In this document: one piece after another, positions 1-15,284 of the stretch
Numbering within the stretch: position 1 is the stretch's first letter
Layout: each line of letters begins with the position of its first letter
Assembly (NCBI GenBank): GCA_000004985.1
Contig: GG738980.1
Length of the DNA: 15,284 nucleotides
DNA from: Naegleria gruberi
Lineage: Eukaryota
Direction: 5' to 3' (one strand)
Notes under the pieces: generated by a model
What the model was told of the DNA's origin: nothing
The model's input: the letters and a program-made list of their open reading frames with translations, nothing else
Database searches by the model: none
Position numbers and translations under genes: made by a program

Positions 1-256
1 TAATACTCAATAGCATAAGGGTCATCCATTGAAATATTGAATGCAGTAATAAACCATAAGAAACCATTATAGTTTCTAGTGTAATTACTTGAAGGTTTCT
101 TCCTTAATCGAAACCAACATCCCTAAATCTCTGGTTTGAAGTATAAGTTTCCATCCAGATGAGCAATTATGAACGTCGTTCCTTCGAATTTGTTCCATAA
201 TTCGGATAATGGTTTGATTAAAAGCATCCTTGAGAAACAGATAGGTACATTATGTC

Positions 257-744
257 GTCCAAAATACAAATTGTTGGTCCAGAAACATTTTGGACGAACA
301 TGTCCATTCAAGATAAATAATACGGCCCAAACGTATTTTGCTTACTGATTATTGGACGCCCAGAAAATCTCTGGACCAACACGTCCATTTTGAACGTTCA
401 ACATCAATTTGCTAGCCCACCCTTAAACAAACAGGCCAGCAACATTTTGTTTGTGCTTTTAATGATGCTCGAAAGATTCAATTCAAGAGATGTTGAGGAC
501 AAATTCAAGAAAAAAAATTCTCCAGCAACAAATCCAACAAAGAAATGACAATAAAAACAGGAGAAGTGGAGTTTCATTGATCATTTCCACTTATTAGGTA
601 TTTAATTGTGATTTTTCAATGATTTACTCATTAAAAACTCATAAACAAACTTTTTGGACAAATCTTAATTTTACCTTAACAAGTTTTTGGACATCCAAAA
701 TCAATTTGTACGTCCTTGCTTATTTTGCTTGTTCAGTCCAAAAT
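257..744. repeat. Cluster of the 8-mer GTCCAAAA and its reverse complement TTTTGGAC.
   Basis: Perfect copies: GTCCAAAA at 257..264 and 736..743; TTTTGGAC at 288..295, 652..659 and 685..692. A 7/8 copy TCCAAAAT is at 694..701. Pairs 257..265/287..295 (9-bp arms, 21-nt spacer) and 685..691/694..700 (7-bp arms, 2-nt spacer) form inverted repeats. Five perfect copies in under 500 bp, against an expectation of about 0.02. Confidence 0.9.
292..391. repeat. Imperfect 19-bp direct repeat (ggacGaacaTgtccattCa at 292..310; ggacCaacaCgtccattTt at 373..391). Each copy contains a GGAC-N6-GTCC mini-palindrome.
   Basis: Hand alignment gives 16 of 19 identical positions. Both copies are embedded in 'ttgg.cc.gaaa' contexts (274..296 and 352..378). 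Confidence 0.7.
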
Positions 745-2392
745 GTACCTATTTGTTAAAATCATCCTTCTTGTGATACTTTTTCTCTTCTTTAATAGCT
801 TTAAGAGTAGAGGCCACCAAATCGAGGAGCTCCATTCTGGAATTACAAATGTCGCTATTGATCTGGATTTGATAAGATGAATGAGAGCTTGACTGATCAA
901 TCCTATTGGAGGAACACAATAACTCACTAGTTCTTTTTCCCAAAGACTTTTGAACGCGTCGTTCTCTTTCCATGAATTGAATACAAGGGTAGTTGCCGAA
1001 CTCGTTGTTGCAAATCTGTCCACATGGTGTATTCCAAATTCTTGGTTGACTAATTCGATTAGTTCCTTGGTGGATCCCCAATCCATCAATCGACTCAACC
1101 TGTCTGCTAGGAAATTCTGTTTGGATGGGATGTAAATCACTTTGCAAATCCACCAATTTCTTCTCATTAGAATCTTTGAGATGTCTCTTGCTATCTTTGC
1201 GAGATCGTCTTTTGATCCATAACCCTTCTTTAGATATGCCACGGCTACCATGTTGTCTACTCTCAATTCGAAATTTGTGAAATCTGGATAAAGATTTAAT
1301 TCGTCTGCTTGTTTGAAATAAAGCAGTAAGGCTCTTAGTTCCTTGACATTGATGTGCTCTTCTCCATTGAACTTTCCAACAGTAACGATTGAACCTGAGT
1401 GAATGCCGAAACCTTGAGGTGTTGCATCTGAATTCACAATCACTGGGAGAATCCAATCCAATTCGAACGGATGACCATCGTTCTTTTGAATTAACTCCCT
1501 TAGAATCAATAAATCCTTGAATGCGCCTTTGTGAATTTGCATTGATGCGTGCCAACCTCTTCCTGATACTACTGAAACCATGTTCTTTCGAAGACGACAC
1601 ATGAATGGTGAAAGGTACTTGTTGGCAATTGTTAGAAATTCCAACTTTCCTAGGAACTTGGCAACTCTCTTGCATGGAACATAAAGCCGTTTCTGGGAAG
1701 CATTGAGTAGCTCCTCTATGAATTCTAAAGCTGTAATCCTTTTGTCTTCTGGAATTTTTACCAAACCTTGATGAAAGTCTAACAAAACTCCTAGGTATTC
1801 TATTAATTGAGTTGGATTTAAACAACATTTGTCTTTTTGAATGAGGAATCCAAACTCTTCTAAATCCTTTAGAACTATATCTCTGTCTAAGATCAACTGA
1901 TCTTTTGAATGATTTACCACTAAGATATCGTCTAAATAAATGAATACCGAGATTCCTCTTACTCTCCATCTTTGAACTAAGACCTTCATTATCTTGGAGA
2001 ATAATCTTGGAGCAATGTTCAGACCGAATGGTAGGCACTTGTAATGGTAAATCTGGCCGTTGTACCTGAATCCCAATAACTTTCGATCTGTTTCCTTCAC
2101 TGGAACGTGATGATAACCTTTCATCAAATCTATTTTGATTCCTAACATGTCTTTTGATAGAAACTTTAGAGTTTTGTGAATATGATCCATTTTGAATGAG
2201 TCGTTGTTTATACCAGCATTTATGGATCTCAAATCTAGGATTAGACGAAACTGGTCTTTGCCTTTCTTCGGAACCACGTGAATCGGATTTATGACAGTGT
2301 CCTTGTTTCCAATTTCTATAATATTGGTTTTGAGTAAATCTGAGATTTCGCTCTTTAACCATGAATCTTCCTTTTCTGAAAAATGAGATCTT
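733..2392 (-). CDS. pol: Partial pol polyprotein (reverse transcriptase, RNase H and conserved post-RNase H domain) of a DIRS/Ngaro-class retrotransposon. The 5' end is truncated by the N-gap. The stop codon TGA is at 735..733.
   Basis: The ORF-track 'M' at 2277 is actually GTG. I translated upstream codon by codon (2278..2391) and found no stop, so the frame is open into the gap. RT motifs read RPILDLRxLN-like 'FRLILDLRSIN', 'KIDLMKGYHHVPV', 'LPFGLNIAPRLFSKIM', the catalytic 'YLDD' (nt 1938..1927), 'GFLIQKDKC' and 'YLGVLLD'. RNase H motifs read 'DATPQGFG', 'VKELRALL', 'VDNMVAVAYL' and 'NFLADRLSR'. The C-terminal 'VDRFATT..NSWKENDAF..W...YCVPPIGLISQAL.HL......ATFVIPEWSSSIWWPLL' matches the domain that follows RNase H in DIRS-like pols (DLFASR..DAF..W..YAFPPF.LI..VL.K....A.L.AP.WP...WF). 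Confidence 0.85.
749..2392 (-). CDS. Overlapping ORF in the -1 frame relative to pol. It is at least 548 codons long, open into the N-gap, with stop TAG at 751..749. The product is a basic Ser/Arg/Lys/Gln-rich protein of unknown function.
   Basis: The ORF track lists 749..2362 (537 aa). I checked codons 2363..2392 and found no stop, so the frame continues into the gap. It ends 16 nt before the pol stop. There is no recognisable tyrosine-recombinase R..HxxR..Y signature. Long open alternative frames are very unlikely by chance in AT-rich DNA. Confidence 0.3.
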   Translation of the reverse strand, partial: KISFFRKGRFMVKERNLRFTQNQYYRNWKQGHCHKSDSRGSEERQRPVSSNPRFEIHKCWYKQRLIQNGSYSQNSKVSIKRHVRNQNRFDERLSSRSSEGNRSKVIGIQVQRPDLPLQVPTIRSEHCSKIILQDNEGLSSKMESKRNLGIHLFRRYLSGKSFKRSVDLRQRYSSKGFRRVWIPHSKRQMLFKSNSINRIPRSFVRLSSRFGKNSRRQKDYSFRIHRGATQCFPETALCSMQESCQVPRKVGISNNCQQVPFTIHVSSSKEHGFSSIRKRLARINANSQRRIQGFIDSKGVNSKERWSSVRIGLDSPSDCEFRCNTSRFRHSLRFNRYCWKVQWRRAHQCQGTKSLTALFQTSRRIKSLSRFHKFRIESRQHGSRGISKEGLWIKRRSRKDSKRHLKDSNEKKLVDLQSDLHPIQTEFPSRQVESIDGLGIHQGTNRISQPRIWNTPCGQICNNEFGNYPCIQFMERERRVQKSLGKRTSELLCSSNRIDQSSSHSSYQIQINSDICNSRMELLDLVASTLKAIKEEKKYHKKDDFNK

Positions 2393-5300
2393 NNNNNNNN
2401 NNNNNNNNNNNNNNNNNNNNNNNNNNNNNNNNNNNNNNNNNNNNNNNNNNNNNNNNNNNNNNNNNNNNNNNNNNNNNNNNNNNNNNNNNNNNNNNNNNNN
2501 NNNNNNNNNNNNNNNNNNNNNNNNNNNNNNNNNNNNNNNNNNNNNNNNNNNNNNNNNNNNNNNNNNNNNNNNNNNNNNNNNNNNNNNNNNNNNNNNNNNN
2601 NNNNNNNNNNNNNNNNNNNNNNNNNNNNNNNNNNNNNNNNNNNNNNNNNNNNNNNNNNNNNNNNNNNNNNNNNNNNNNNNNNNNNNNNNNNNNNNNNNNN
2701 NNNNNNNNNNNNNNNNNNNNNNNNNNNNNNNNNNNNNNNNNNNNNNNNNNNNNNNNNNNNNNNNNNNNNNNNNNNNNNNNNNNNNNNNNNNNNNNNNNNN
2801 NNNNNNNNNNNNNNNNNNNNNNNNNNNNNNNNNNNNNNNNNNNNNNNNNNNNNNNNNNNNNNNNNNNNNNNNNNNNNNNNNNNNNNNNNNNNNNNNNNNN
2901 NNNNNNNNNNNNNNNNNNNNNNNNNNNNNNNNNNNNNNNNNNNNNNNNNNNNNNNNNNNNNNNNNNNNNNNNNNNNNNNNNNNNNNNNNNNNNNNNNNNN
3001 NNNNNNNNNNNNNNNNNNNNNNNNNNNNNNNNNNNNNNNNNNNNNNNNNNNNNNNNNNNNNNNNNNNNNNNNNNNNNNNNNNNNNNNNNNNNNNNNNNNN
3101 NNNNNNNNNNNNNNNNNNNNNNNNNNNNNNNNNNNNNNNNNNNNNNNNNNNNNNNNNNNNNNNNNNNNNNNNNNNNNNNNNNNNNNNNNNNNNNNNNNNN
3201 NNNNNNNNNNNNNNNNNNNNNNNNNNNNNNNNNNNNNNNNNNNNNNNNNNNNNNNNNNNNNNNNNNNNNNNNNNNNNNNNNNNNNNNNNNNNNNNNNNNN
3301 NNNNNNNNNNNNNNNNNNNNNNNNNNNNNNNNNNNNNNNNNNNNNNNNNNNNNNNNNNNNNNNNNNNNNNNNNNNNNNNNNNNNNNNNNNNNNNNNNNNN
3401 NNNNNNNNNNNNNNNNNNNNNNNNNNNNNNNNNNNNNNNNNNNNNNNNNNNNNNNNNNNNNNNNNNNNNNNNNNNNNNNNNNNNNNNNNNNNNNNNNNNN
3501 NNNNNNNNNNNNNNNNNNNNNNNNNNNNNNNNNNNNNNNNNNNNNNNNNNNNNNNNNNNNNNNNNNNNNNNNNNNNNNNNNNNNNNNNNNNNNNNNNNNN
3601 NNNNNNNNNNNNNNNNNNNNNNNNNNNNNNNNNNNNNNNNNNNNNNNNNNNNNNNNNNNNNNNNNNNNNNNNNNNNNNNNNNNNNNNNNNNNNNNNNNNN
3701 NNNNNNNNNNNNNNNNNNNNNNNNNNNNNNNNNNNNNNNNNNNNNNNNNNNNNNNNNNNNNNNNNNNNNNNNNNNNNNNNNNNNNNNNNNNNNNNNNNNN
3801 NNNNNNNNNNNNNNNNNNNNNNNNNNNNNNNNNNNNNNNNNNNNNNNNNNNNNNNNNNNNNNNNNNNNNNNNNNNNNNNNNNNNNNNNNNNNNNNNNNNN
3901 NNNNNNNNNNNNNNNNNNNNNNNNNNNNNNNNNNNNNNNNNNNNNNNNNNNNNNNNNNNNNNNNNNNNNNNNNNNNNNNNNNNNNNNNNNNNNNNNNNNN
4001 NNNNNNNNNNNNNNNNNNNNNNNNNNNNNNNNNNNNNNNNNNNNNNNNNNNNNNNNNNNNNNNNNNNNNNNNNNNNNNNNNNNNNNNNNNNNNNNNNNNN
4101 NNNNNNNNNNNNNNNNNNNNNNNNNNNNNNNNNNNNNNNNNNNNNNNNNNNNNNNNNNNNNNNNNNNNNNNNNNNNNNNNNNNNNNNNNNNNNNNNNNNN
4201 NNNNNNNNNNNNNNNNNNNNNNNNNNNNNNNNNNNNNNNNNNNNNNNNNNNNNNNNNNNNNNNNNNNNNNNNNNNNNNNNNNNNNNNNNNNNNNNNNNNN
4301 NNNNNNNNNNNNNNNNNNNNNNNNNNNNNNNNNNNNNNNNNNNNNNNNNNNNNNNNNNNNNNNNNNNNNNNNNNNNNNNNNNNNNNNNNNNNNNNNNNNN
4401 NNNNNNNNNNNNNNNNNNNNNNNNNNNNNNNNNNNNNNNNNNNNNNNNNNNNNNNNNNNNNNNNNNNNNNNNNNNNNNNNNNNNNNNNNNNNNNNNNNNN
4501 NNNNNNNNNNNNNNNNNNNNNNNNNNNNNNNNNNNNNNNNNNNNNNNNNNNNNNNNNNNNNNNNNNNNNNNNNNNNNNNNNNNNNNNNNNNNNNNNNNNN
4601 NNNNNNNNNNNNNNNNNNNNNNNNNNNNNNNNNNNNNNNNNNNNNNNNNNNNNNNNNNNNNNNNNNNNNNNNNNNNNNNNNNNNNNNNNNNNNNNNNNNN
4701 NNNNNNNNNNNNNNNNNNNNNNNNNNNNNNNNNNNNNNNNNNNNNNNNNNNNNNNNNNNNNNNNNNNNNNNNNNNNNNNNNNNNNNNNNNNNNNNNNNNN
4801 NNNNNNNNNNNNNNNNNNNNNNNNNNNNNNNNNNNNNNNNNNNNNNNNNNNNNNNNNNNNNNNNNNNNNNNNNNNNNNNNNNNNNNNNNNNNNNNNNNNN
4901 NNNNNNNNNNNNNNNNNNNNNNNNNNNNNNNNNNNNNNNNNNNNNNNNNNNNNNNNNNNNNNNNNNNNNNNNNNNNNNNNNNNNNNNNNNNNNNNNNNNN
5001 NNNNNNNNNNNNNNNNNNNNNNNNNNNNNNNNNNNNNNNNNNNNNNNNNNNNNNNNNNNNNNNNNNNNNNNNNNNNNNNNNNNNNNNNNNNNNNNNNNNN
5101 NNNNNNNNNNNNNNNNNNNNNNNNNNNNNNNNNNNNNNNNNNNNNNNNNNNNNNNNNNNNNNNNNNNNNNNNNNNNNNNNNNNNNNNNNNNNNNNNNNNN
5201 NNNNNNNNNNNNNNNNNNNNNNNNNNNNNNNNNNNNNNNNNNNNNNNNNNNNNNNNNNNNNNNNNNNNNNNNNNNNNNNNNNNNNNNNNNNNNNNNNNNN

Positions 5301-6803
5301 NNNNNNNNNNNNNNNNNNNNNNNNNNNNNNNNNNNNNNNNNNNNNNNNNNNNNNNNNNNNNNNNNNNNNNNNNNNNNNNNNNNNNNNNNNNNNNNNNNNN
5401 NNNNNNNNNNNNNNNNNNNNNNNNNNNNNNNNNNNNNNNNNNNNNNNNNNNNNNNNNNNNNNNNNNNNNNNNNNNNNNNNNNNNNNNNNNNNNNNNNNNN
5501 NNNNNNNNNNNNNNNNNNNNNNNNNNNNNNNNNNNNNNNNNNNNNNNNNNNNNNNNNNNNNNNNNNNNNNNNNNNNNNNNNNNNNNNNNNNNNNNNNNNN
5601 NNNNNNNNNNNNNNNNNNNNNNNNNNNNNNNNNNNNNNNNNNNNNNNNNNNNNNNNNNNNNNNNNNNNNNNNNNNNNNNNNNNNNNNNNNNNNNNNNNNN
5701 NNNNNNNNNNNNNNNNNNNNNNNNNNNNNNNNNNNNNNNNNNNNNNNNNNNNNNNNNNNNNNNNNNNNNNNNNNNNNNNNNNNNNNNNNNNNNNNNNNNN
5801 NNNNNNNNNNNNNNNNNNNNNNNNNNNNNNNNNNNNNNNNNNNNNNNNNNNNNNNNNNNNNNNNNNNNNNNNNNNNNNNNNNNNNNNNNNNNNNNNNNNN
5901 NNNNNNNNNNNNNNNNNNNNNNNNNNNNNNNNNNNNNNNNNNNNNNNNNNNNNNNNNNNNNNNNNNNNNNNNNNNNNNNNNNNNNNNNNNNNNNNNNNNN
6001 NNNNNNNNNNNNNNNNNNNNNNNNNNNNNNNNNNNNNNNNNNNNNNNNNNNNNNNNNNNNNNNNNNNNNNNNNNNNNNNNNNNNNNNNNNNNNNNNNNNN
6101 NNNNNNNNNNNNNNNNNNNNNNNNNNNNNNNNNNNNNNNNNNNNNNNNNNNNNNNNNNNNNNNNNNNNNNNNNNNNNNNNNNNNNNNNNNNNNNNNNNNN
6201 NNNNNNNNNNNNNNNNNNNNNNNNNNNNNNNNNNNNNNNNNNNNNNNNNNNNNNNNNNNNNNNNNNNNNNNNNNNNNNNNNNNNNNNNNNNNNNNNNNNN
6301 NNNNNNNNNNNNNNNNNNNNNNNNNNNNNNNNNNNNNNNNNNNNNNNNNNNNNNNNNNNNNNNNNNNNNNNNNNNNNNNNNNNNNNNNNNNNNNNNNNNN
6401 NNNNNNNNNNNNNNNNNNNNNNNNNNNNNNNNNNNNNNNNNNNNNNNNNNNNNNNNNNNNNNNNNNNNNNNNNNNNNNNNNNNNNNNNNNNNNNNNNNNN
6501 NNNNNNNNNNNNNNNNNNNNNNNNNNNNNNNNNNNNNNNNNNNNNNNNNNNNNNNNNNNNNNNNNNNNNNNNNNNNNNNNNNNNNNNNNNNNNNNNNNNN
6601 NNNNNNNNNNNNNNNNNNNNNNNNNNNNNNNNNNNNNNNNNNNNNNNNNNNNNNNNNNNNNNNNNNNNNNNNNNNNNNNNNNNNNNNNNNNNNNNNNNNN
6701 NNNNNNNNNNNNNNNNNNNNNNNNNNNNNNNNNNNNNNNNNNNNNNNNNNNNNNNNNNNNNNNNNNNNNNNNNNNNNNNNNNNNNNNNNNNNNNNNNNNN
6801 NNN
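2393..6803. other. Run of 4,411 N (assembly gap or masked region).
   Basis: Literal n characters. The six-frame ORFs 2361..6872 and 2383..6876 are artefacts of translating N as X. Confidence 1.

Positions 6804-6882: not shown

Positions 6883-6910
<28 letters not shown>
6883..6910. repeat. (AT)14 dinucleotide microsatellite.
   Basis: atatatatatatatatatatatatatat, read directly. Confidence 0.95.
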
Positions 6911-6913
<3 letters not shown>

Positions 6914-7801: not shown

Positions 7802-8326
7802 TTAATGATGACATGATGTTGAGACTATTTTTTGAGCATAATTTTTAAAATAATATTTTAATAATTTTGTATAAAAACACACTAGTTCTTCACCATATTC
7901 AGAACTCCCATTGTTCAATTCGTCAATAATCAATTTCAATTCATTTCTACAGGCAATAACTTCTGATGAATTGACAGATAATCCATCATAACCATGAATG
8001 CATTTTCCCTTGTAAACTTCATTCAATTCTAACGTCTTGTTTAGCATTACAAATTTCTTATTTTTGTAATCTAAAATCTTATCTTCAGTATAATTTTTGG
8101 AATTCGCAGCCATAACCCCAAATGCAATTTCTCCAATTTCTTCGGAGAACATAGTAAAATTTTCCGTAAAAAAGTCATGAAACGTTTTGGACTTCTTCTT
8201 CCAAAATTCAAATAACAAAGATTGGAATATTTCTGCATTCCTATATAAGTTATGTTTTCCCAAAATAAATAGGTATGTTAATACATCTCTAGATAATGAA
8301 AATTCATTCCAATTTCCAACTCTCAA
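7802..8326 (-). CDS. Hypothetical protein-coding segment with stop TAA at 7804..7802. The track 'start' at 8326 is TTG. The frame stays open up to 8446 with no ATG, and the first ATG is at 8152..8150 (117 codons to the stop). It is either an exon of a spliced gene or a gene fragment.
   Basis: I translated upstream of 8326 codon by codon. There is no stop until TGA at 8449..8447, and the frame reads through both copies of the 42-bp tandem repeat (..TTTIAAKNFTIQVRTTTIAAKNFTILFE..). The downstream protein is ..MFSEEIGEIAFGVMAANSKNYTEDKILDYKNKKFVMLNKTLELNEVYKGKCIHGYDGLSVNSSEVIACRNELKLIIDELNNGSSEYGEELVCFYTKLLKYYFKNYAQKIVSTSCHH, with no match to any family I recognise. Confidence 0.4.
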   Translation of the reverse strand: MRVGNWNEFSLSRDVLTYLFILGKHNLYRNAEIFQSLLFEFWKKKSKTFHDFFTENFTMFSEEIGEIAFGVMAANSKNYTEDKILDYKNKKFVMLNKTLELNEVYKGKCIHGYDGLSVNSSEVIACRNELKLIIDELNNGSSEYGEELVCFYTKLLKYYFKNYAQKIVSTSCHH

Positions 8327-8370: not shown

Positions 8371-8454
8371 GAATTGTAAAGTTTTTGGCAGCTATTGTAG
8401 TAGTTCTAACCTGAATTGTAAAGTTTTTGGCAGCTATTGTAGTAGTTCAAACAC
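8371..8454. repeat. Two-copy tandem duplication of a 42-bp unit (39/42 identical). Its 36-bp core gaattgtaaagtttttggcagctattgtagtagttc is perfect in both copies (8371..8406 and 8413..8448).
   Basis: Read directly. The unit length is a multiple of 3, and the minus-strand open frame reads through both copies. Confidence 0.95.
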
Positions 8455-8879
8455 CAAGCAAAGCGAATATCTCCAACATTCGTCAAAGAGTTTCAGCAAG
8501 CAAATCTTCAACTTCTACCTACAAGTCAGGTTACATCCCAGTAACTGACAATGGTAGCTCAGCTTCACTCCCCTCTGTGGTTGACCCAACAAGCAAAACC
8601 TTGGATAACAATCAAGCTGGTTCTGAAAAGAACCTTGATGCTATTTTCAACGCCATCACTTCTTTGGGTGAGAGAATAAAGCATCTCGAAGCTGTTCCTC
8701 CTGTTCTGCAACAAGCTAATCAACTTGATGAAGACCCTGATGAGGAATCCGCTGATGAGGATTTCACTGGTAAACATTGGGGTCTAACTACTATCAAGGA
8801 GATTAGACGTAACTACGAAGTTGGTGATAGACTATCTGTTATAGGCGATAAAAACTCGCACGAAGACCCAGGCAGTTAA
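8415..8879 (+). CDS. Hypothetical ATG-less ORF (exon or gene fragment) of 154 codons with stop TAA at 8877..8879.
   Basis: The frame is open from the TGA at 8412..8414. The track start at 8427 is TTG, and there is no in-frame ATG anywhere in the ORF. It translates to ..AAIVVVQTPSKANISNIRQRVSASKSS..LDAIFNAITSLGERIKHLEAVPPVLQQANQLDEDPDEESADEDFTGKHWGLTTIKEIRRNYEVGDRLSVIGDKNSHEDPGS, which is acidic and Ser-rich and unrecognised. A candidate 3' splice acceptor tttttggcag sits at 8424..8433 inside the repeat. Confidence 0.35.
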   Translation: MVKFLAAIVVVQTPSKANISNIRQRVSASKSSTSTYKSGYIPVTDNGSSASLPSVVDPTSKTLDNNQAGSEKNLDAIFNAITSLGERIKHLEAVPPVLQQANQLDEDPDEESADEDFTGKHWGLTTIKEIRRNYEVGDRLSVIGDKNSHEDPGS

Positions 8880-9476: not shown

Positions 9477-12400
9477 NNNNNNNNNNNNNNNNNNNNNNNN
9501 NNNNNNNNNNNNNNNNNNNNNNNNNNNNNNNNNNNNNNNNNNNNNNNNNNNNNNNNNNNNNNNNNNNNNNNNNNNNNNNNNNNNNNNNNNNNNNNNNNNN
9601 NNNNNNNNNNNNNNNNNNNNNNNNNNNNNNNNNNNNNNNNNNNNNNNNNNNNNNNNNNNNNNNNNNNNNNNNNNNNNNNNNNNNNNNNNNNNNNNNNNNN
9701 NNNNNNNNNNNNNNNNNNNNNNNNNNNNNNNNNNNNNNNNNNNNNNNNNNNNNNNNNNNNNNNNNNNNNNNNNNNNNNNNNNNNNNNNNNNNNNNNNNNN
9801 NNNNNNNNNNNNNNNNNNNNNNNNNNNNNNNNNNNNNNNNNNNNNNNNNNNNNNNNNNNNNNNNNNNNNNNNNNNNNNNNNNNNNNNNNNNNNNNNNNNN
9901 NNNNNNNNNNNNNNNNNNNNNNNNNNNNNNNNNNNNNNNNNNNNNNNNNNNNNNNNNNNNNNNNNNNNNNNNNNNNNNNNNNNNNNNNNNNNNNNNNNNN
10001 NNNNNNNNNNNNNNNNNNNNNNNNNNNNNNNNNNNNNNNNNNNNNNNNNNNNNNNNNNNNNNNNNNNNNNNNNNNNNNNNNNNNNNNNNNNNNNNNNNNN
10101 NNNNNNNNNNNNNNNNNNNNNNNNNNNNNNNNNNNNNNNNNNNNNNNNNNNNNNNNNNNNNNNNNNNNNNNNNNNNNNNNNNNNNNNNNNNNNNNNNNNN
10201 NNNNNNNNNNNNNNNNNNNNNNNNNNNNNNNNNNNNNNNNNNNNNNNNNNNNNNNNNNNNNNNNNNNNNNNNNNNNNNNNNNNNNNNNNNNNNNNNNNNN
10301 NNNNNNNNNNNNNNNNNNNNNNNNNNNNNNNNNNNNNNNNNNNNNNNNNNNNNNNNNNNNNNNNNNNNNNNNNNNNNNNNNNNNNNNNNNNNNNNNNNNN
10401 NNNNNNNNNNNNNNNNNNNNNNNNNNNNNNNNNNNNNNNNNNNNNNNNNNNNNNNNNNNNNNNNNNNNNNNNNNNNNNNNNNNNNNNNNNNNNNNNNNNN
10501 NNNNNNNNNNNNNNNNNNNNNNNNNNNNNNNNNNNNNNNNNNNNNNNNNNNNNNNNNNNNNNNNNNNNNNNNNNNNNNNNNNNNNNNNNNNNNNNNNNNN
10601 NNNNNNNNNNNNNNNNNNNNNNNNNNNNNNNNNNNNNNNNNNNNNNNNNNNNNNNNNNNNNNNNNNNNNNNNNNNNNNNNNNNNNNNNNNNNNNNNNNNN
10701 NNNNNNNNNNNNNNNNNNNNNNNNNNNNNNNNNNNNNNNNNNNNNNNNNNNNNNNNNNNNNNNNNNNNNNNNNNNNNNNNNNNNNNNNNNNNNNNNNNNN
10801 NNNNNNNNNNNNNNNNNNNNNNNNNNNNNNNNNNNNNNNNNNNNNNNNNNNNNNNNNNNNNNNNNNNNNNNNNNNNNNNNNNNNNNNNNNNNNNNNNNNN
10901 NNNNNNNNNNNNNNNNNNNNNNNNNNNNNNNNNNNNNNNNNNNNNNNNNNNNNNNNNNNNNNNNNNNNNNNNNNNNNNNNNNNNNNNNNNNNNNNNNNNN
11001 NNNNNNNNNNNNNNNNNNNNNNNNNNNNNNNNNNNNNNNNNNNNNNNNNNNNNNNNNNNNNNNNNNNNNNNNNNNNNNNNNNNNNNNNNNNNNNNNNNNN
11101 NNNNNNNNNNNNNNNNNNNNNNNNNNNNNNNNNNNNNNNNNNNNNNNNNNNNNNNNNNNNNNNNNNNNNNNNNNNNNNNNNNNNNNNNNNNNNNNNNNNN
11201 NNNNNNNNNNNNNNNNNNNNNNNNNNNNNNNNNNNNNNNNNNNNNNNNNNNNNNNNNNNNNNNNNNNNNNNNNNNNNNNNNNNNNNNNNNNNNNNNNNNN
11301 NNNNNNNNNNNNNNNNNNNNNNNNNNNNNNNNNNNNNNNNNNNNNNNNNNNNNNNNNNNNNNNNNNNNNNNNNNNNNNNNNNNNNNNNNNNNNNNNNNNN
11401 NNNNNNNNNNNNNNNNNNNNNNNNNNNNNNNNNNNNNNNNNNNNNNNNNNNNNNNNNNNNNNNNNNNNNNNNNNNNNNNNNNNNNNNNNNNNNNNNNNNN
11501 NNNNNNNNNNNNNNNNNNNNNNNNNNNNNNNNNNNNNNNNNNNNNNNNNNNNNNNNNNNNNNNNNNNNNNNNNNNNNNNNNNNNNNNNNNNNNNNNNNNN
11601 NNNNNNNNNNNNNNNNNNNNNNNNNNNNNNNNNNNNNNNNNNNNNNNNNNNNNNNNNNNNNNNNNNNNNNNNNNNNNNNNNNNNNNNNNNNNNNNNNNNN
11701 NNNNNNNNNNNNNNNNNNNNNNNNNNNNNNNNNNNNNNNNNNNNNNNNNNNNNNNNNNNNNNNNNNNNNNNNNNNNNNNNNNNNNNNNNNNNNNNNNNNN
11801 NNNNNNNNNNNNNNNNNNNNNNNNNNNNNNNNNNNNNNNNNNNNNNNNNNNNNNNNNNNNNNNNNNNNNNNNNNNNNNNNNNNNNNNNNNNNNNNNNNNN
11901 NNNNNNNNNNNNNNNNNNNNNNNNNNNNNNNNNNNNNNNNNNNNNNNNNNNNNNNNNNNNNNNNNNNNNNNNNNNNNNNNNNNNNNNNNNNNNNNNNNNN
12001 NNNNNNNNNNNNNNNNNNNNNNNNNNNNNNNNNNNNNNNNNNNNNNNNNNNNNNNNNNNNNNNNNNNNNNNNNNNNNNNNNNNNNNNNNNNNNNNNNNNN
12101 NNNNNNNNNNNNNNNNNNNNNNNNNNNNNNNNNNNNNNNNNNNNNNNNNNNNNNNNNNNNNNNNNNNNNNNNNNNNNNNNNNNNNNNNNNNNNNNNNNNN
12201 NNNNNNNNNNNNNNNNNNNNNNNNNNNNNNNNNNNNNNNNNNNNNNNNNNNNNNNNNNNNNNNNNNNNNNNNNNNNNNNNNNNNNNNNNNNNNNNNNNNN
12301 NNNNNNNNNNNNNNNNNNNNNNNNNNNNNNNNNNNNNNNNNNNNNNNNNNNNNNNNNNNNNNNNNNNNNNNNNNNNNNNNNNNNNNNNNNNNNNNNNNNN

Positions 12401-13805
12401 NNNNNNNNNNNNNNNNNNNNNNNNNNNNNNNNNNNNNNNNNNNNNNNNNNNNNNNNNNNNNNNNNNNNNNNNNNNNNNNNNNNNNNNNNNNNNNNNNNNN
12501 NNNNNNNNNNNNNNNNNNNNNNNNNNNNNNNNNNNNNNNNNNNNNNNNNNNNNNNNNNNNNNNNNNNNNNNNNNNNNNNNNNNNNNNNNNNNNNNNNNNN
12601 NNNNNNNNNNNNNNNNNNNNNNNNNNNNNNNNNNNNNNNNNNNNNNNNNNNNNNNNNNNNNNNNNNNNNNNNNNNNNNNNNNNNNNNNNNNNNNNNNNNN
12701 NNNNNNNNNNNNNNNNNNNNNNNNNNNNNNNNNNNNNNNNNNNNNNNNNNNNNNNNNNNNNNNNNNNNNNNNNNNNNNNNNNNNNNNNNNNNNNNNNNNN
12801 NNNNNNNNNNNNNNNNNNNNNNNNNNNNNNNNNNNNNNNNNNNNNNNNNNNNNNNNNNNNNNNNNNNNNNNNNNNNNNNNNNNNNNNNNNNNNNNNNNNN
12901 NNNNNNNNNNNNNNNNNNNNNNNNNNNNNNNNNNNNNNNNNNNNNNNNNNNNNNNNNNNNNNNNNNNNNNNNNNNNNNNNNNNNNNNNNNNNNNNNNNNN
13001 NNNNNNNNNNNNNNNNNNNNNNNNNNNNNNNNNNNNNNNNNNNNNNNNNNNNNNNNNNNNNNNNNNNNNNNNNNNNNNNNNNNNNNNNNNNNNNNNNNNN
13101 NNNNNNNNNNNNNNNNNNNNNNNNNNNNNNNNNNNNNNNNNNNNNNNNNNNNNNNNNNNNNNNNNNNNNNNNNNNNNNNNNNNNNNNNNNNNNNNNNNNN
13201 NNNNNNNNNNNNNNNNNNNNNNNNNNNNNNNNNNNNNNNNNNNNNNNNNNNNNNNNNNNNNNNNNNNNNNNNNNNNNNNNNNNNNNNNNNNNNNNNNNNN
13301 NNNNNNNNNNNNNNNNNNNNNNNNNNNNNNNNNNNNNNNNNNNNNNNNNNNNNNNNNNNNNNNNNNNNNNNNNNNNNNNNNNNNNNNNNNNNNNNNNNNN
13401 NNNNNNNNNNNNNNNNNNNNNNNNNNNNNNNNNNNNNNNNNNNNNNNNNNNNNNNNNNNNNNNNNNNNNNNNNNNNNNNNNNNNNNNNNNNNNNNNNNNN
13501 NNNNNNNNNNNNNNNNNNNNNNNNNNNNNNNNNNNNNNNNNNNNNNNNNNNNNNNNNNNNNNNNNNNNNNNNNNNNNNNNNNNNNNNNNNNNNNNNNNNN
13601 NNNNNNNNNNNNNNNNNNNNNNNNNNNNNNNNNNNNNNNNNNNNNNNNNNNNNNNNNNNNNNNNNNNNNNNNNNNNNNNNNNNNNNNNNNNNNNNNNNNN
13701 NNNNNNNNNNNNNNNNNNNNNNNNNNNNNNNNNNNNNNNNNNNNNNNNNNNNNNNNNNNNNNNNNNNNNNNNNNNNNNNNNNNNNNNNNNNNNNNNNNNN
13801 NNNNN
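9477..13805. other. Run of 4,329 N (assembly gap or masked region).
   Basis: Literal n characters. ORFs 9380..13849, 9462..13889 and 9473..13813 are artefacts of translating N as X. Confidence 1.
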
Positions 13806-14546
13806 TTTTTCAATGGTTTCTACTGCTTTTACTTTTTCAGCAGATTTAATGGCCTTCTCTTGTTGTTTGGAGGTGATTTGGTCAAGTGAACCTCCTGATT
13901 TGTAGCTGTTAGAGAAGTTTTCAGCTGCTTCAAAGCCATTTTTAATGCCCATTCGAATACAGACTAGATTTAACTCAGAAATATTCTGAATAAATTCAAA
14001 TCCTTGAAGAATAAGCGGTAAATCAAGGGTATCACTCTCTCTCAAACGCTTGCAGATTTGAGAGATGATAAAAGAGTTTGTTAAAAGTAAAGAATAACCT
14101 TTACTTTTAATATCTTTTATACCAGATGAATCTGGAATGGGAGTGTCTACTTCTTTTCTGAACAACAATTCAAGAGCAGCCATTCTATTCTTGAATTCCA
14201 AGTTGTCAGCGTATGGAGCATTGGCTGTTTCGAATAGAAGAGAAACAGCTTCTTCCAACGGCAAATCTTCTTTCAATGACTCACCAAACATTCTTTGGTA
14301 AGAGTTGATGACGTGGTTTTTAAACCAATCATCTGGTTCATCAGCAACTCTTGCTCTTTTACCAGAAACCTCTTCAGATGGGTTGGACTCAAACAATTCC
14401 ATCGAAGAAGCGAGAGCAGAAGCACCTTGTGAACCAACCTTGGCGGAAGGAGTTAGAACAATGACTCGTTGCTCGCTACCTGCAGAAGGTGAGCTAAGGT
14501 CTTTCGTTTTCTTGTTGTTCTTTGGTGTAGTTGGTGTTGGGGCCAT
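13806..14546 (-). CDS. N-terminal 247 codons of a larger protein-coding gene, with ATG at 14546..14544. It continues into the N-gap and the product is not recognised.
   Basis: A genuine ATG, verified as cat at 14544..14546 on the plus strand, sits in an A-rich context (aaaaaattatcacaATGG, A at -3). The uninterrupted 741-nt ORF has protein-like composition: MAPTPTTPKNNKKTKDLSSPSAGSEQRVIVLTPSAKVGSQGAS..DWFKNHVINSYQRMFGESLKEDLPLEEAVSLLFETANAPYADNLEFKNRMAALELLFRKEVDTPIPD..LILQGFEFIQNISELNLVCIRMGIKNGFEAAENF... A TATA-like aaatataag lies about 45 nt upstream on the minus strand (near 14590). Confidence 0.7.
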
Positions 14547-15284
14547 TGTGATAATTTTTTGAGCATGGAAAAATACTCAACTTATATTTTATTAAGTTTA
14601 CAATGAAAACAAGTCCATTCTTCACTTCGCTCAGAATTAGACATTAGAGGGTGTTTGTTCATAAGTGCTAGATAGATATCGTGCAGATGGTGCATTGGGG
14701 AATCCAATAACTAGAAAAGAAGGTGATAATTGCAAGCTAGAAGAAATAGATTTCTTATCCGTATCAATTCTACGAATTATATTAGCTTTTTCTCTTGTTT
14801 CAGTTATCCAATTTGGGCAAGGATCAAACTCTTCAGAAGCAAACAAATCAGTATCCTGTCCGGAAAGAACAAGGTCCCTGGTGGTAACAAATAATTACAG
14901 GTATCCACACACATTTCTTCTACTGTTCCTTCACATTCGTTTTCATTAGCCATTTTTCTTACTTGTTGTTCCATTTTTTAAAAGTGTTTTTTAACGAGTA
15001 ATAAGCGTTTCCAATCAAGATTTAAGGCTTGCTCGAGTTTCAGTATTTATTCGATTAATGTATTCTCTCCTGATAAGAAATAAAGCAATTATTATTCACA
15101 CAATAAACTCTGGACTTGCCGAAACTTGATAAATCTAAGAGGATCAACCATTTGCTTTCAAGTATTCTAATTCATTAAATCTATGCATCCTTAGTAACTG
15201 AAAAAGTGGCTGAGGAAAATTTTCATTAAAATAAAAATAGACCAGATCAAAAACATGGGTTGTTATGCTAAAGAGAATAGATAA

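Follow-up and report, generated by a model that had tools for sequence, protein, structure and literature searches.

A probable defective copy of a DIRS-order retrotransposon in the Naegleria gruberi genome

DIRS-type retrotransposons are selfish DNA that inserts by means of a tyrosine recombinase and has no integrase. We argue that one of them lies at the left end of a 15,284-nucleotide stretch of Naegleria gruberi contig GG738980.1 (assembly GCA_000004985.1), and we call that whole stretch the window. Positions 1-2392, read on the minus strand, are very probably (about 90%) the 3' two-thirds of a defective element of about 4.0 kb. It would belong to the DIRS order, and there to the methyltransferase-bearing branch (the DIRS1/PAT lineage). 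The intact order of genes, as read from a 99.6%-identical contig that we call L001, appears to be gag, then pol with reverse transcriptase (RT), RNase H and a methyltransferase-like (MT-like) domain, then a tyrosine recombinase (YR). The family has no name and its kind is already known. It is a new family, which may be either DIRS1-like or PAT-like.

Results and discussion

The pol gene

The minus-strand frame from 2391 down to 736 is open for 552 codons and closes with a TGA stop at 735-733. A preliminary description, made from the letters alone, had seen RT motifs, a catalytic YLDD and an RNase H in it, and all of these are there. The motifs VPKKGKDQFRLILDLRSIN, CLPFGLNIAPRLFSKIM, IYLDDIL, NSDATPQGFG and NFLADRLSR fall in this single frame, and so does the block VDRFA...NDAF..LW...YCVPPIGL...ATFVIPEW...WWPLL. 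The pol signal is far above chance, given the RVT_1 match (E=3.1e-26), the best solved-structure relative (Ty3 RT, E=1.6e-20) and a 637-aa database protein (P0001) that is 99% identical. The frame runs open up to a block of 4411 Ns (2393-6803). The same description had the open reading frame (ORF) open to 2392. It is indeed open to the N block, but the pol frame is read from 2391. The reading from 2392 that begins 'KISFF...' was considered as pol and rejected, since it belongs to a second open frame that overlaps the first. The N block truncates the remaining fragment of pol on the 5' side, and an insertion truncates it on the 3' side.

The catalytic residues are well kept. D88, D154 and D155 of the RT are invariant in the family alignment. 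D322, D379 and D430 of the RNase H are invariant among 22 aligned relatives and E351 is nearly so, which gives the full D-E-D-D set. The RNase H of the window matches Pfam RVT_3 weakly (residues 332-434), and its relatives match RT_RNaseH or RNase_H. The block after the RNase H had been called DIRS-type on sight. It is the DIRS methyltransferase-like domain, and it models as an N6-adenine-methyltransferase-like fold. Residues 438-531 match the phage Dam family PF05869 below threshold (E=6.9e-4, 19.8 bits; cut-off 28.1). Motif IV reads VPPI or APPL in this lineage, while distant relatives in the family alignment keep NPPF, NPPW or FPPF. Judging from these residues the domain may be catalytically dead. 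A Pfam search of the window protein gave no protease, integrase or chromodomain match.

Affinity of the reverse transcriptase

The window pol and three relatives were compared by blastp and neighbour-joining (NJ) with 49 reference RTs taken from the published alignment of Ribeiro et al. 2019 (PMC6681497, supplement 16). The top 14 blastp matches of the window RT all belong to the DIRS group. DIRS2_DPu is the best of them (42% identity, 119 bits), followed by DIRS8_NV and DIRS8_Lch. Ty3/gypsy references reach at most 86 bits, caulimovirus 63, Ngaro 60 and hepadnavirus 37; the BEL references gave no blastp match to it. In the NJ tree the four query RTs are monophyletic in 199 of 200 bootstrap replicates, and they split from gypsy plus caulimovirus in 178. 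A position within the YR-retrotransposon clade appears in 84.

One can imagine that this is instead the pol of a Ty3/gypsy or BEL long terminal repeat (LTR) retrotransposon or a pararetrovirus, and that there is a DDE integrase out of sight somewhere else. The RT and RNase H are homologous to those of Ty3/gypsy, and Ty3 RT is the best match of solved structure. That kinship holds for DIRS elements in general, as their RT and RNase H are Ty3/gypsy relatives (PMC3266345). However, every gypsy, caulimovirus, hepadnavirus and BEL reference scores below all those of the DIRS group, and the 178/200 split points the same way. Unlike Ty3/gypsy, the family has an MT domain, and a tyrosine recombinase follows pol in five related contigs. 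No LTRs were found, and the window protein and the ORFs of L001 and L002 show no protease, chromodomain or DDE integrase. An LTR element or pararetrovirus has next to no chance of being the right answer. The preliminary description had proposed a check for better matches to Ty3/gypsy, BEL, caulimovirus or hepadnavirus pols and for a chromodomain integrase downstream. The DIRS group matches best and the DIRS reading stands, and what lies downstream is a tyrosine recombinase.

That description had used the label 'DIRS/Ngaro'. The first half of the label holds, on the RT matches and the downstream recombinase; the second half does not. Ngaro elements are YR retrotransposons with RT and RNase H too, they also have split direct repeats, and one tree groups them with our queries at a poorly supported 29/200. 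But the family studied here has an MT domain and a long ORF overlap. Ngaro elements lack the former and usually the latter (PMC3266345; PMC4157794). The RT similarity is also much lower, at no more than 60 bits for Ngaro references against 119 for the DIRS group. It would be very surprising if this were a Ngaro-type element.

An exhaustive HMMER search of 1.84 billion cluster representatives returned 1300 proteins at E<=1e-30, which shows DIRS-type pols to be common. About 10 of those relatives are at least 40% identical to the window pol, and all of these are metagenome or Logan sequences.

The whole element and its recombinase

L001 is a 4324-bp ENA metagenome contig that carries P0001. Its pol and the window pol share 99.45% amino acid identity over 545 aa, with 3 differences. 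At the nucleotide level L001 1419-3060 is 99.6% identical to window 2392-752, and L001 3042-3271 is 98.3% identical to window 231-1. A gag ORF lies upstream of pol in L001 and its relatives. These sequences are 30-40% GC and the gag tails of the relatives are Asn-rich, a composition that points only to an AT-rich eukaryote with the standard stop codons.

In five related contigs pol is followed by a tyrosine-recombinase gene. This ORF matches PF00589 (Phage_integrase) at 5.8e-4 in L001 and 2.5e-10 in L002, and precomputed annotation also gives PF00589 for it in L002, L003 and L006. The motifs ARPG(E/D), GHKTD, GHSLRIG, R(H/W) and the tyrosine are common to four sequences. The residues R-K-H-R-H/W-Y are carried by the recombinases of L001, L002, L003 and L006. 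There is no rve (integrase) match in the window protein or in the ORFs of L001 and L002, and no protease or chromodomain match in them either.

This arrangement changes what the N block is expected to hold. The 5' half of pol had been placed there, with the suggestion that gag and the recombinase may lie there too. Only about 85 of the 637 pol codons are expected in the block, alongside gag, and the recombinase is instead 3' of pol. It starts at window position 120 and runs off the left edge, with the remainder of the gene past it. If the copy is collinear with L001, its share of the N block would be about 1358 nt, ending near 3750 (Table 1). P0001 gave no match in scans of the genome and metagenome contig sets, and an exact 33-mer from the N-block edge gave none in the metagenome set.

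The family can encode RT, RNase H and an MT-like fold, and its intact relatives encode a tyrosine recombinase as well. By analogy with work on DIRS-1 (PMC7192593; PMC3266345), an intact element would be transcribed and its own RT and RNase H would make the cDNA. The cDNA would be closed into a circle, using the terminal redundancy. The tyrosine recombinase would then integrate the circle by site-specific recombination, with no DDE integrase and no target-site duplication.

Damage to this copy

Pol is interrupted 31 codons ahead of its stop by a 520-bp insertion that L001 does not have. The insertion has terminal inverted repeats (TAGGTACATT / AATGTACCTA) and is rich in subterminal GTCCAAAA/TTTTGGAC motifs, which makes it look like a miniature inverted-repeat transposable element. 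It is surrounded by an imperfect target duplication of about 18 bp (AAGGATGaTTTTAA-CAAA ... AAGGATGCTTTTAATCAAA) plus 10 extra bases. There is a TA on either side of GGTACATT...AATGTACC. An attempt to match the target-site duplication with a known superfamily gave no assignment.

The last 6 codons of the window ORF and the stop at 733 derive from this insertion, and the tail there reads '...RRMILTNRYILD*'. The end of the ORF at 733, which the preliminary description had taken at face value, is thus an artefact, because the insertion supplies a false C-terminus and stop. The native tail is at 230-126. The insertion also shuts the second frame (ORF2) by a TAG at 751-749, in its own first bases.

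The recombinase is damaged too. Relative to L001, clustered changes at its start (AAC-TT to AGTAAT) make a TAA at codon 12 (87-85), and it carries a 1-nt indel as well. With an insertion in pol and a premature stop in the recombinase the window copy is defective or dead, and we predict that it is unable to transpose on its own.

Pol has an undamaged frame of 546 codons and only 3 amino acids separate it from L001, so one may ask whether a DIRS pol has been domesticated here as a host gene, or whether the copy is still autonomous. Neither fits the insertion before the last 31 pol codons and the recombinase with its stop and indel. There are further problems: a near-identical copy exists in another sample, and the window has a second DIRS-type gag at a distance of 11 kb, in what looks like a transposon-rich region. 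We hold both ideas to be most improbable. A dead transposon copy is the better description.

The overlapping frame and the gag-TGA-C junction

A second frame, -1 relative to pol, is open along the whole pol fragment. It has 0 stops against 36.0 expected (minimum 23) in 2000 synonymous-codon shuffles, which retain the pol protein and its codon usage. The +1 frame of the same region has 68 stops. In L002, L003 and L006 the frame likewise runs for 618-622 codons with no stop, and in L001 it has 2. Across four lineages, whose pols are 46-59% identical to one another, this makes 0 stops where 24-41 are expected. In L002, L003 and L006 it continues into the recombinase, which makes ORFs of 920-936 codons.

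The product of the overlapped part of ORF2 is rich in Arg, Ser and Lys, with a net charge of +69. Its amino acid conservation is slightly above the synonymous-shuffle expectation, an excess that comes partly from the missing stops. The openness of the overlap is demonstrably maintained, and we do not claim a conserved protein. This is the kind of long ORF overlap known from DIRS-1 and half of the annotated DIRS1-like elements, where only the 3' end, with the catalytic domain of the recombinase, lies outside the overlap (PMC3266345).

In 4 of 4 lineages gag and ORF2 lie in the same frame, with a single TGA and then a C between them. It is exactly at this gag TGA-C that conserved pol sequence sets in, in the +1 frame, where A-TGA-C is read as AAT/GAT-GAC. 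The sequences suggest that the TGA-C may be a combined readthrough and +1 frameshift site. In the literature that we searched there was nothing on readthrough or +1 frameshifting at a gag-TGA-C for the expression of DIRS pol and recombinase.

Termini: DIRS1-like or PAT-like

L001 carries its 5' leader and the start of gag twice. The first copy (A1) is at 61-306 and the second (A2) follows the recombinase gene at 4079-4324, at 97% identity. In the second copy ATA stands in place of the gag ATG. The sequence ahead of this copy bears no relation to the first 60 nt of the contig. In terms of split direct repeats B1 abuts A2, and no B2 is reached before the end of the contig. The L003 unitig is circular, with a 30-nt end overlap and a unit of 4097 bp. 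L004 and L005, from other samples, hold the L003 element in circularly permuted form, which makes three independent sequencing runs in all. These circles are compatible with split direct repeats, with tandem arrays or with extrachromosomal circles.

Inverted repeats of the classical kind did not turn up. No inverted terminal repeat (ITR) or internal complementary region (ICR) of at least 18 nt was found in L003-L006, and L001 and L002 gave only 11-nt perfect cores. One ICR-like inverted match in L001 (46-77 with 3424-3455, 72%) was rejected as chance, since it includes flank sequence. L001 has no LTRs. The same search was run on two control elements. L007 gave a 115-nt ITR and ICR arms of 36 and 74 nt that are 100% complementary and overlap by 3 nt. 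L008 gave split direct repeats A (164 nt, with the gag start) and B (80 nt). The terminus search is valid because the controls yield the expected repeats. The ends of the relatives thus appear to be direct repeats, PAT-type or tandem, and not the ITR plus ICR of a classical DIRS1-like element. Along with these ends the family has a DIRS1-type gene layout and an RT nearest to those of DIRS1-like elements, and such homoplasy has been reported before by Szitenberg et al. (PMC4157794).

The family also shares much with the DIRS1-like elements (DIRS-1 of Dictyostelium discoideum, Repbase families such as DIRS2_DPu and DIRS8_NV, and our control L007). They likewise have gag, an RT-RNase H-MT pol and a YR, and pol nested in a longer ORF2 with the recombinase at its 3' end. 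Their RTs are the nearest, at 37-42% identity. The family is compact, like AcasDIRS1 of Acanthamoeba (3974 bp, PMC3266345). There are differences. Close relatives of the window element gave no ITR or ICR, and L007 has both. Gag and ORF2 are one frame split by a single TGA, but they are in different frames in L007. Motif IV of the MT domain is VPPI or APPL instead of NPPF or NPPW.

The PAT-like elements (Pat1 of Panagrellus, SkowPat, Toc, kangaroo and our control L008) are also MT-bearing and have the order gag-pol-YR. L008 repeats the 5' leader and gag start after its YR, as L001 does, and in the window family this gives circularly permuted assemblies. But L008 has no overlap of pol and YR, and the RTs of PAT references are more distant. 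The best PAT reference is at a distance of 1.85, compared with 1.15 for DIRS-like references, and PAT, SkowPat and Kangaroo are all farther off than the DIRS-like ones. In the RT tree L008 groups with the PAT references and the query does not, while L007 goes with the DIRS1-like ones; bootstrap is low either way. The B2 repeat, which is part of the split direct repeats of PAT-like elements, is undocumented in the window family.

One could argue that the element is a classical DIRS1-like one with ITR and ICR, and that the direct repeats and circles of its relatives come from faulty assembly or from copies in tandem or nested in each other. The reference RTs closest to its own are DIRS1-like, and in the NJ base tree with more taxa the queries join those references and the ITR/ICR control L007. 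Pol inside ORF2 is the DIRS1 layout, and the textbook L007 has the same nesting. In L001 and L002 the junction has a short and imperfect inverted repeat on its flanks (25-37 nt, about 75-80%), and DIRS-1 is known to insert into other DIRS-1 copies (PMC7192593). However, the bootstrap for this placement is 26/200 (13%). The search that finds ITR and ICR in L007 finds none in L003-L006. The non-coding junction is about 130-140 nt in all, which is too short for two ITRs and an ICR. We consider a classical DIRS1-like element unlikely, though it is the likeliest of the alternatives considered.

At the other extreme, this could be a distinct DIRS-order lineage that joins the DIRS1-type layout (pol in ORF2) to PAT-type direct-repeat ends, possibly with all three proteins made from one recoding site. 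This is a speculative idea and the odds are against it. If it were true, termination would give Gag, readthrough would give a Gag-ORF2-recombinase protein and a +1 shift like that of antizyme or Ty3 would give Gag-Pol.

It must be said what weighs against our assignment of the window DNA to a defective element of the DIRS1/PAT lineage. The recombinase is represented in the window by 12 codons only. The window shows neither gag nor either terminus, and the whole-element picture depends on L001. This is a short-read metagenome contig that could be a chimera among copies. The Dam match of the window protein is under the curated Pfam cut-off (19.8 against 28.1 bits). Bootstrap is low for the position inside the YR-retrotransposon clade and lower still with the DIRS1-like references. 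RT similarity and ORF layout point to DIRS1-like and the termini of the relatives point to PAT-like, so that the sub-classification could go either way. B2 of the split direct repeat was never seen, so the repeats may come from head-to-tail tandem copies.

Table 1. Coordinates of the features discussed, in the window and in related contigs
Feature	Sequence	Positions	Strand	Basis or remark
Pol ORF fragment (RT, RNase H, MT)	window	752-2391	minus	codons ~86-632 of the 637-codon pol
Reverse transcriptase domain, YLDD active site	window	1786-2274	minus	Pfam RVT_1 E=3.1e-26, residues 40-202
RNase H domain (D322, E351, D379, D430)	window	1090-1440	minus	D-E-D-D residues, directly after RT
Methyltransferase-like (Dam/PCIF1-like) domain	window	754-1080	minus	after RNase H
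Second open frame, -1 relative to pol	window	752-2392	minus	stop-free over 547 codons; the N-terminal part of ORF2, which pol overlaps
Insertion, 520 bp, absent from L001	window	232-751		comparison with L001
Native last 35 pol codons and TAG stop (125-123)	window	123-230	minus	100% identical to L001 pol residues 684-718
Tyrosine-recombinase gene start	window	1-120	minus	ATG 120-118; alignment with L001 3030-3271; YR profile E=5e-10
Projected pol codons 1-85, gag, 5' leader/direct repeat (all N)	window	2393-3750	minus	inferred only, by projection of L001 61-1418
Gag	L001	159-1277
Pol	L001	1237-3150
YR (third ORF)	L001	3153-4046
Gag TGA-C site	L001, L002, L003, L006	1275, 1198, 1037, 956 respectively		in the window this site falls inside the N block
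Second, different DIRS-order gag	window	13806-14546	minus	56% aa identity to L006 gag, E=7e-83

Surroundings in the window

The element is not the only piece of its kind here. A second, different DIRS-order gag lies near the right end (Table 1). Its leader occupies 14547 to about 14640, and the remainder of that element runs into a second N block (9477-13805), where its pol and recombinase would be. The leader has a GTTCT...AGAAC hairpin and a ATGCTCAAAAAA box, both of which recur at the junctions of L001, L002 and L004. A third leader-like piece is at 7819-7960 on the minus strand. It reads GAGTTCTGAATATGGTGAAGAAC ... ATGCTCAAAAAAT and is collinear with the L001, L002 and L004 junctions, and no gag follows it. 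The piece overlaps the end of an orphan ORF (7802-8326, minus) whose one database relative is a 160-aa Logan protein.

That ORF and another at 8427-8879 (plus) were considered as gag fragments and rejected, as neither has a convincing blastp or gag-profile match. A 40-nt segment is tandemly duplicated at 8371-8452 (98% identical, 42-nt spacing), at the start of the ORF at 8427-8879. Upstream of the second leader, 14637-14880 on the minus strand holds an 80-codon open frame (...LVLSGQDTDLF...APSARYLSS...*) that is faintly like the C-terminal part of a recombinase. Three YR queries match the same spot in it weakly (E 0.03-0.15, in the LSGHKTD region). If this match is true there is a junction of recombinase end and leader there too. 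The 14547-15284 region was searched for a full recombinase, and we do not claim a B-A junction upstream of the second leader since the weak matches are insufficient. The two N blocks (4411 and 4329 nt) are each about one element long, and each abuts a DIRS-type piece. A (TA)n run follows the first of them, at about 6885-6912.

Conclusions

What is gained is mainly annotation. The locus is a dead DIRS-order copy, in an apparent cluster of such elements, and the positions of its recombinase and gag have been put right. A lineage is added to a sparsely sampled order of transposons, with the nearest reference RT only 42% identical. The nested pair of pol and ORF2 is a clean natural case of a maintained overlapping frame of 1.6-1.9 kb. 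The gag-TGA-C junction offers a testable hypothesis for how DIRS pol and recombinase are expressed. Finally, the window copy is 99.6% identical to a contig from another sample, and this suggests that the family was active recently.

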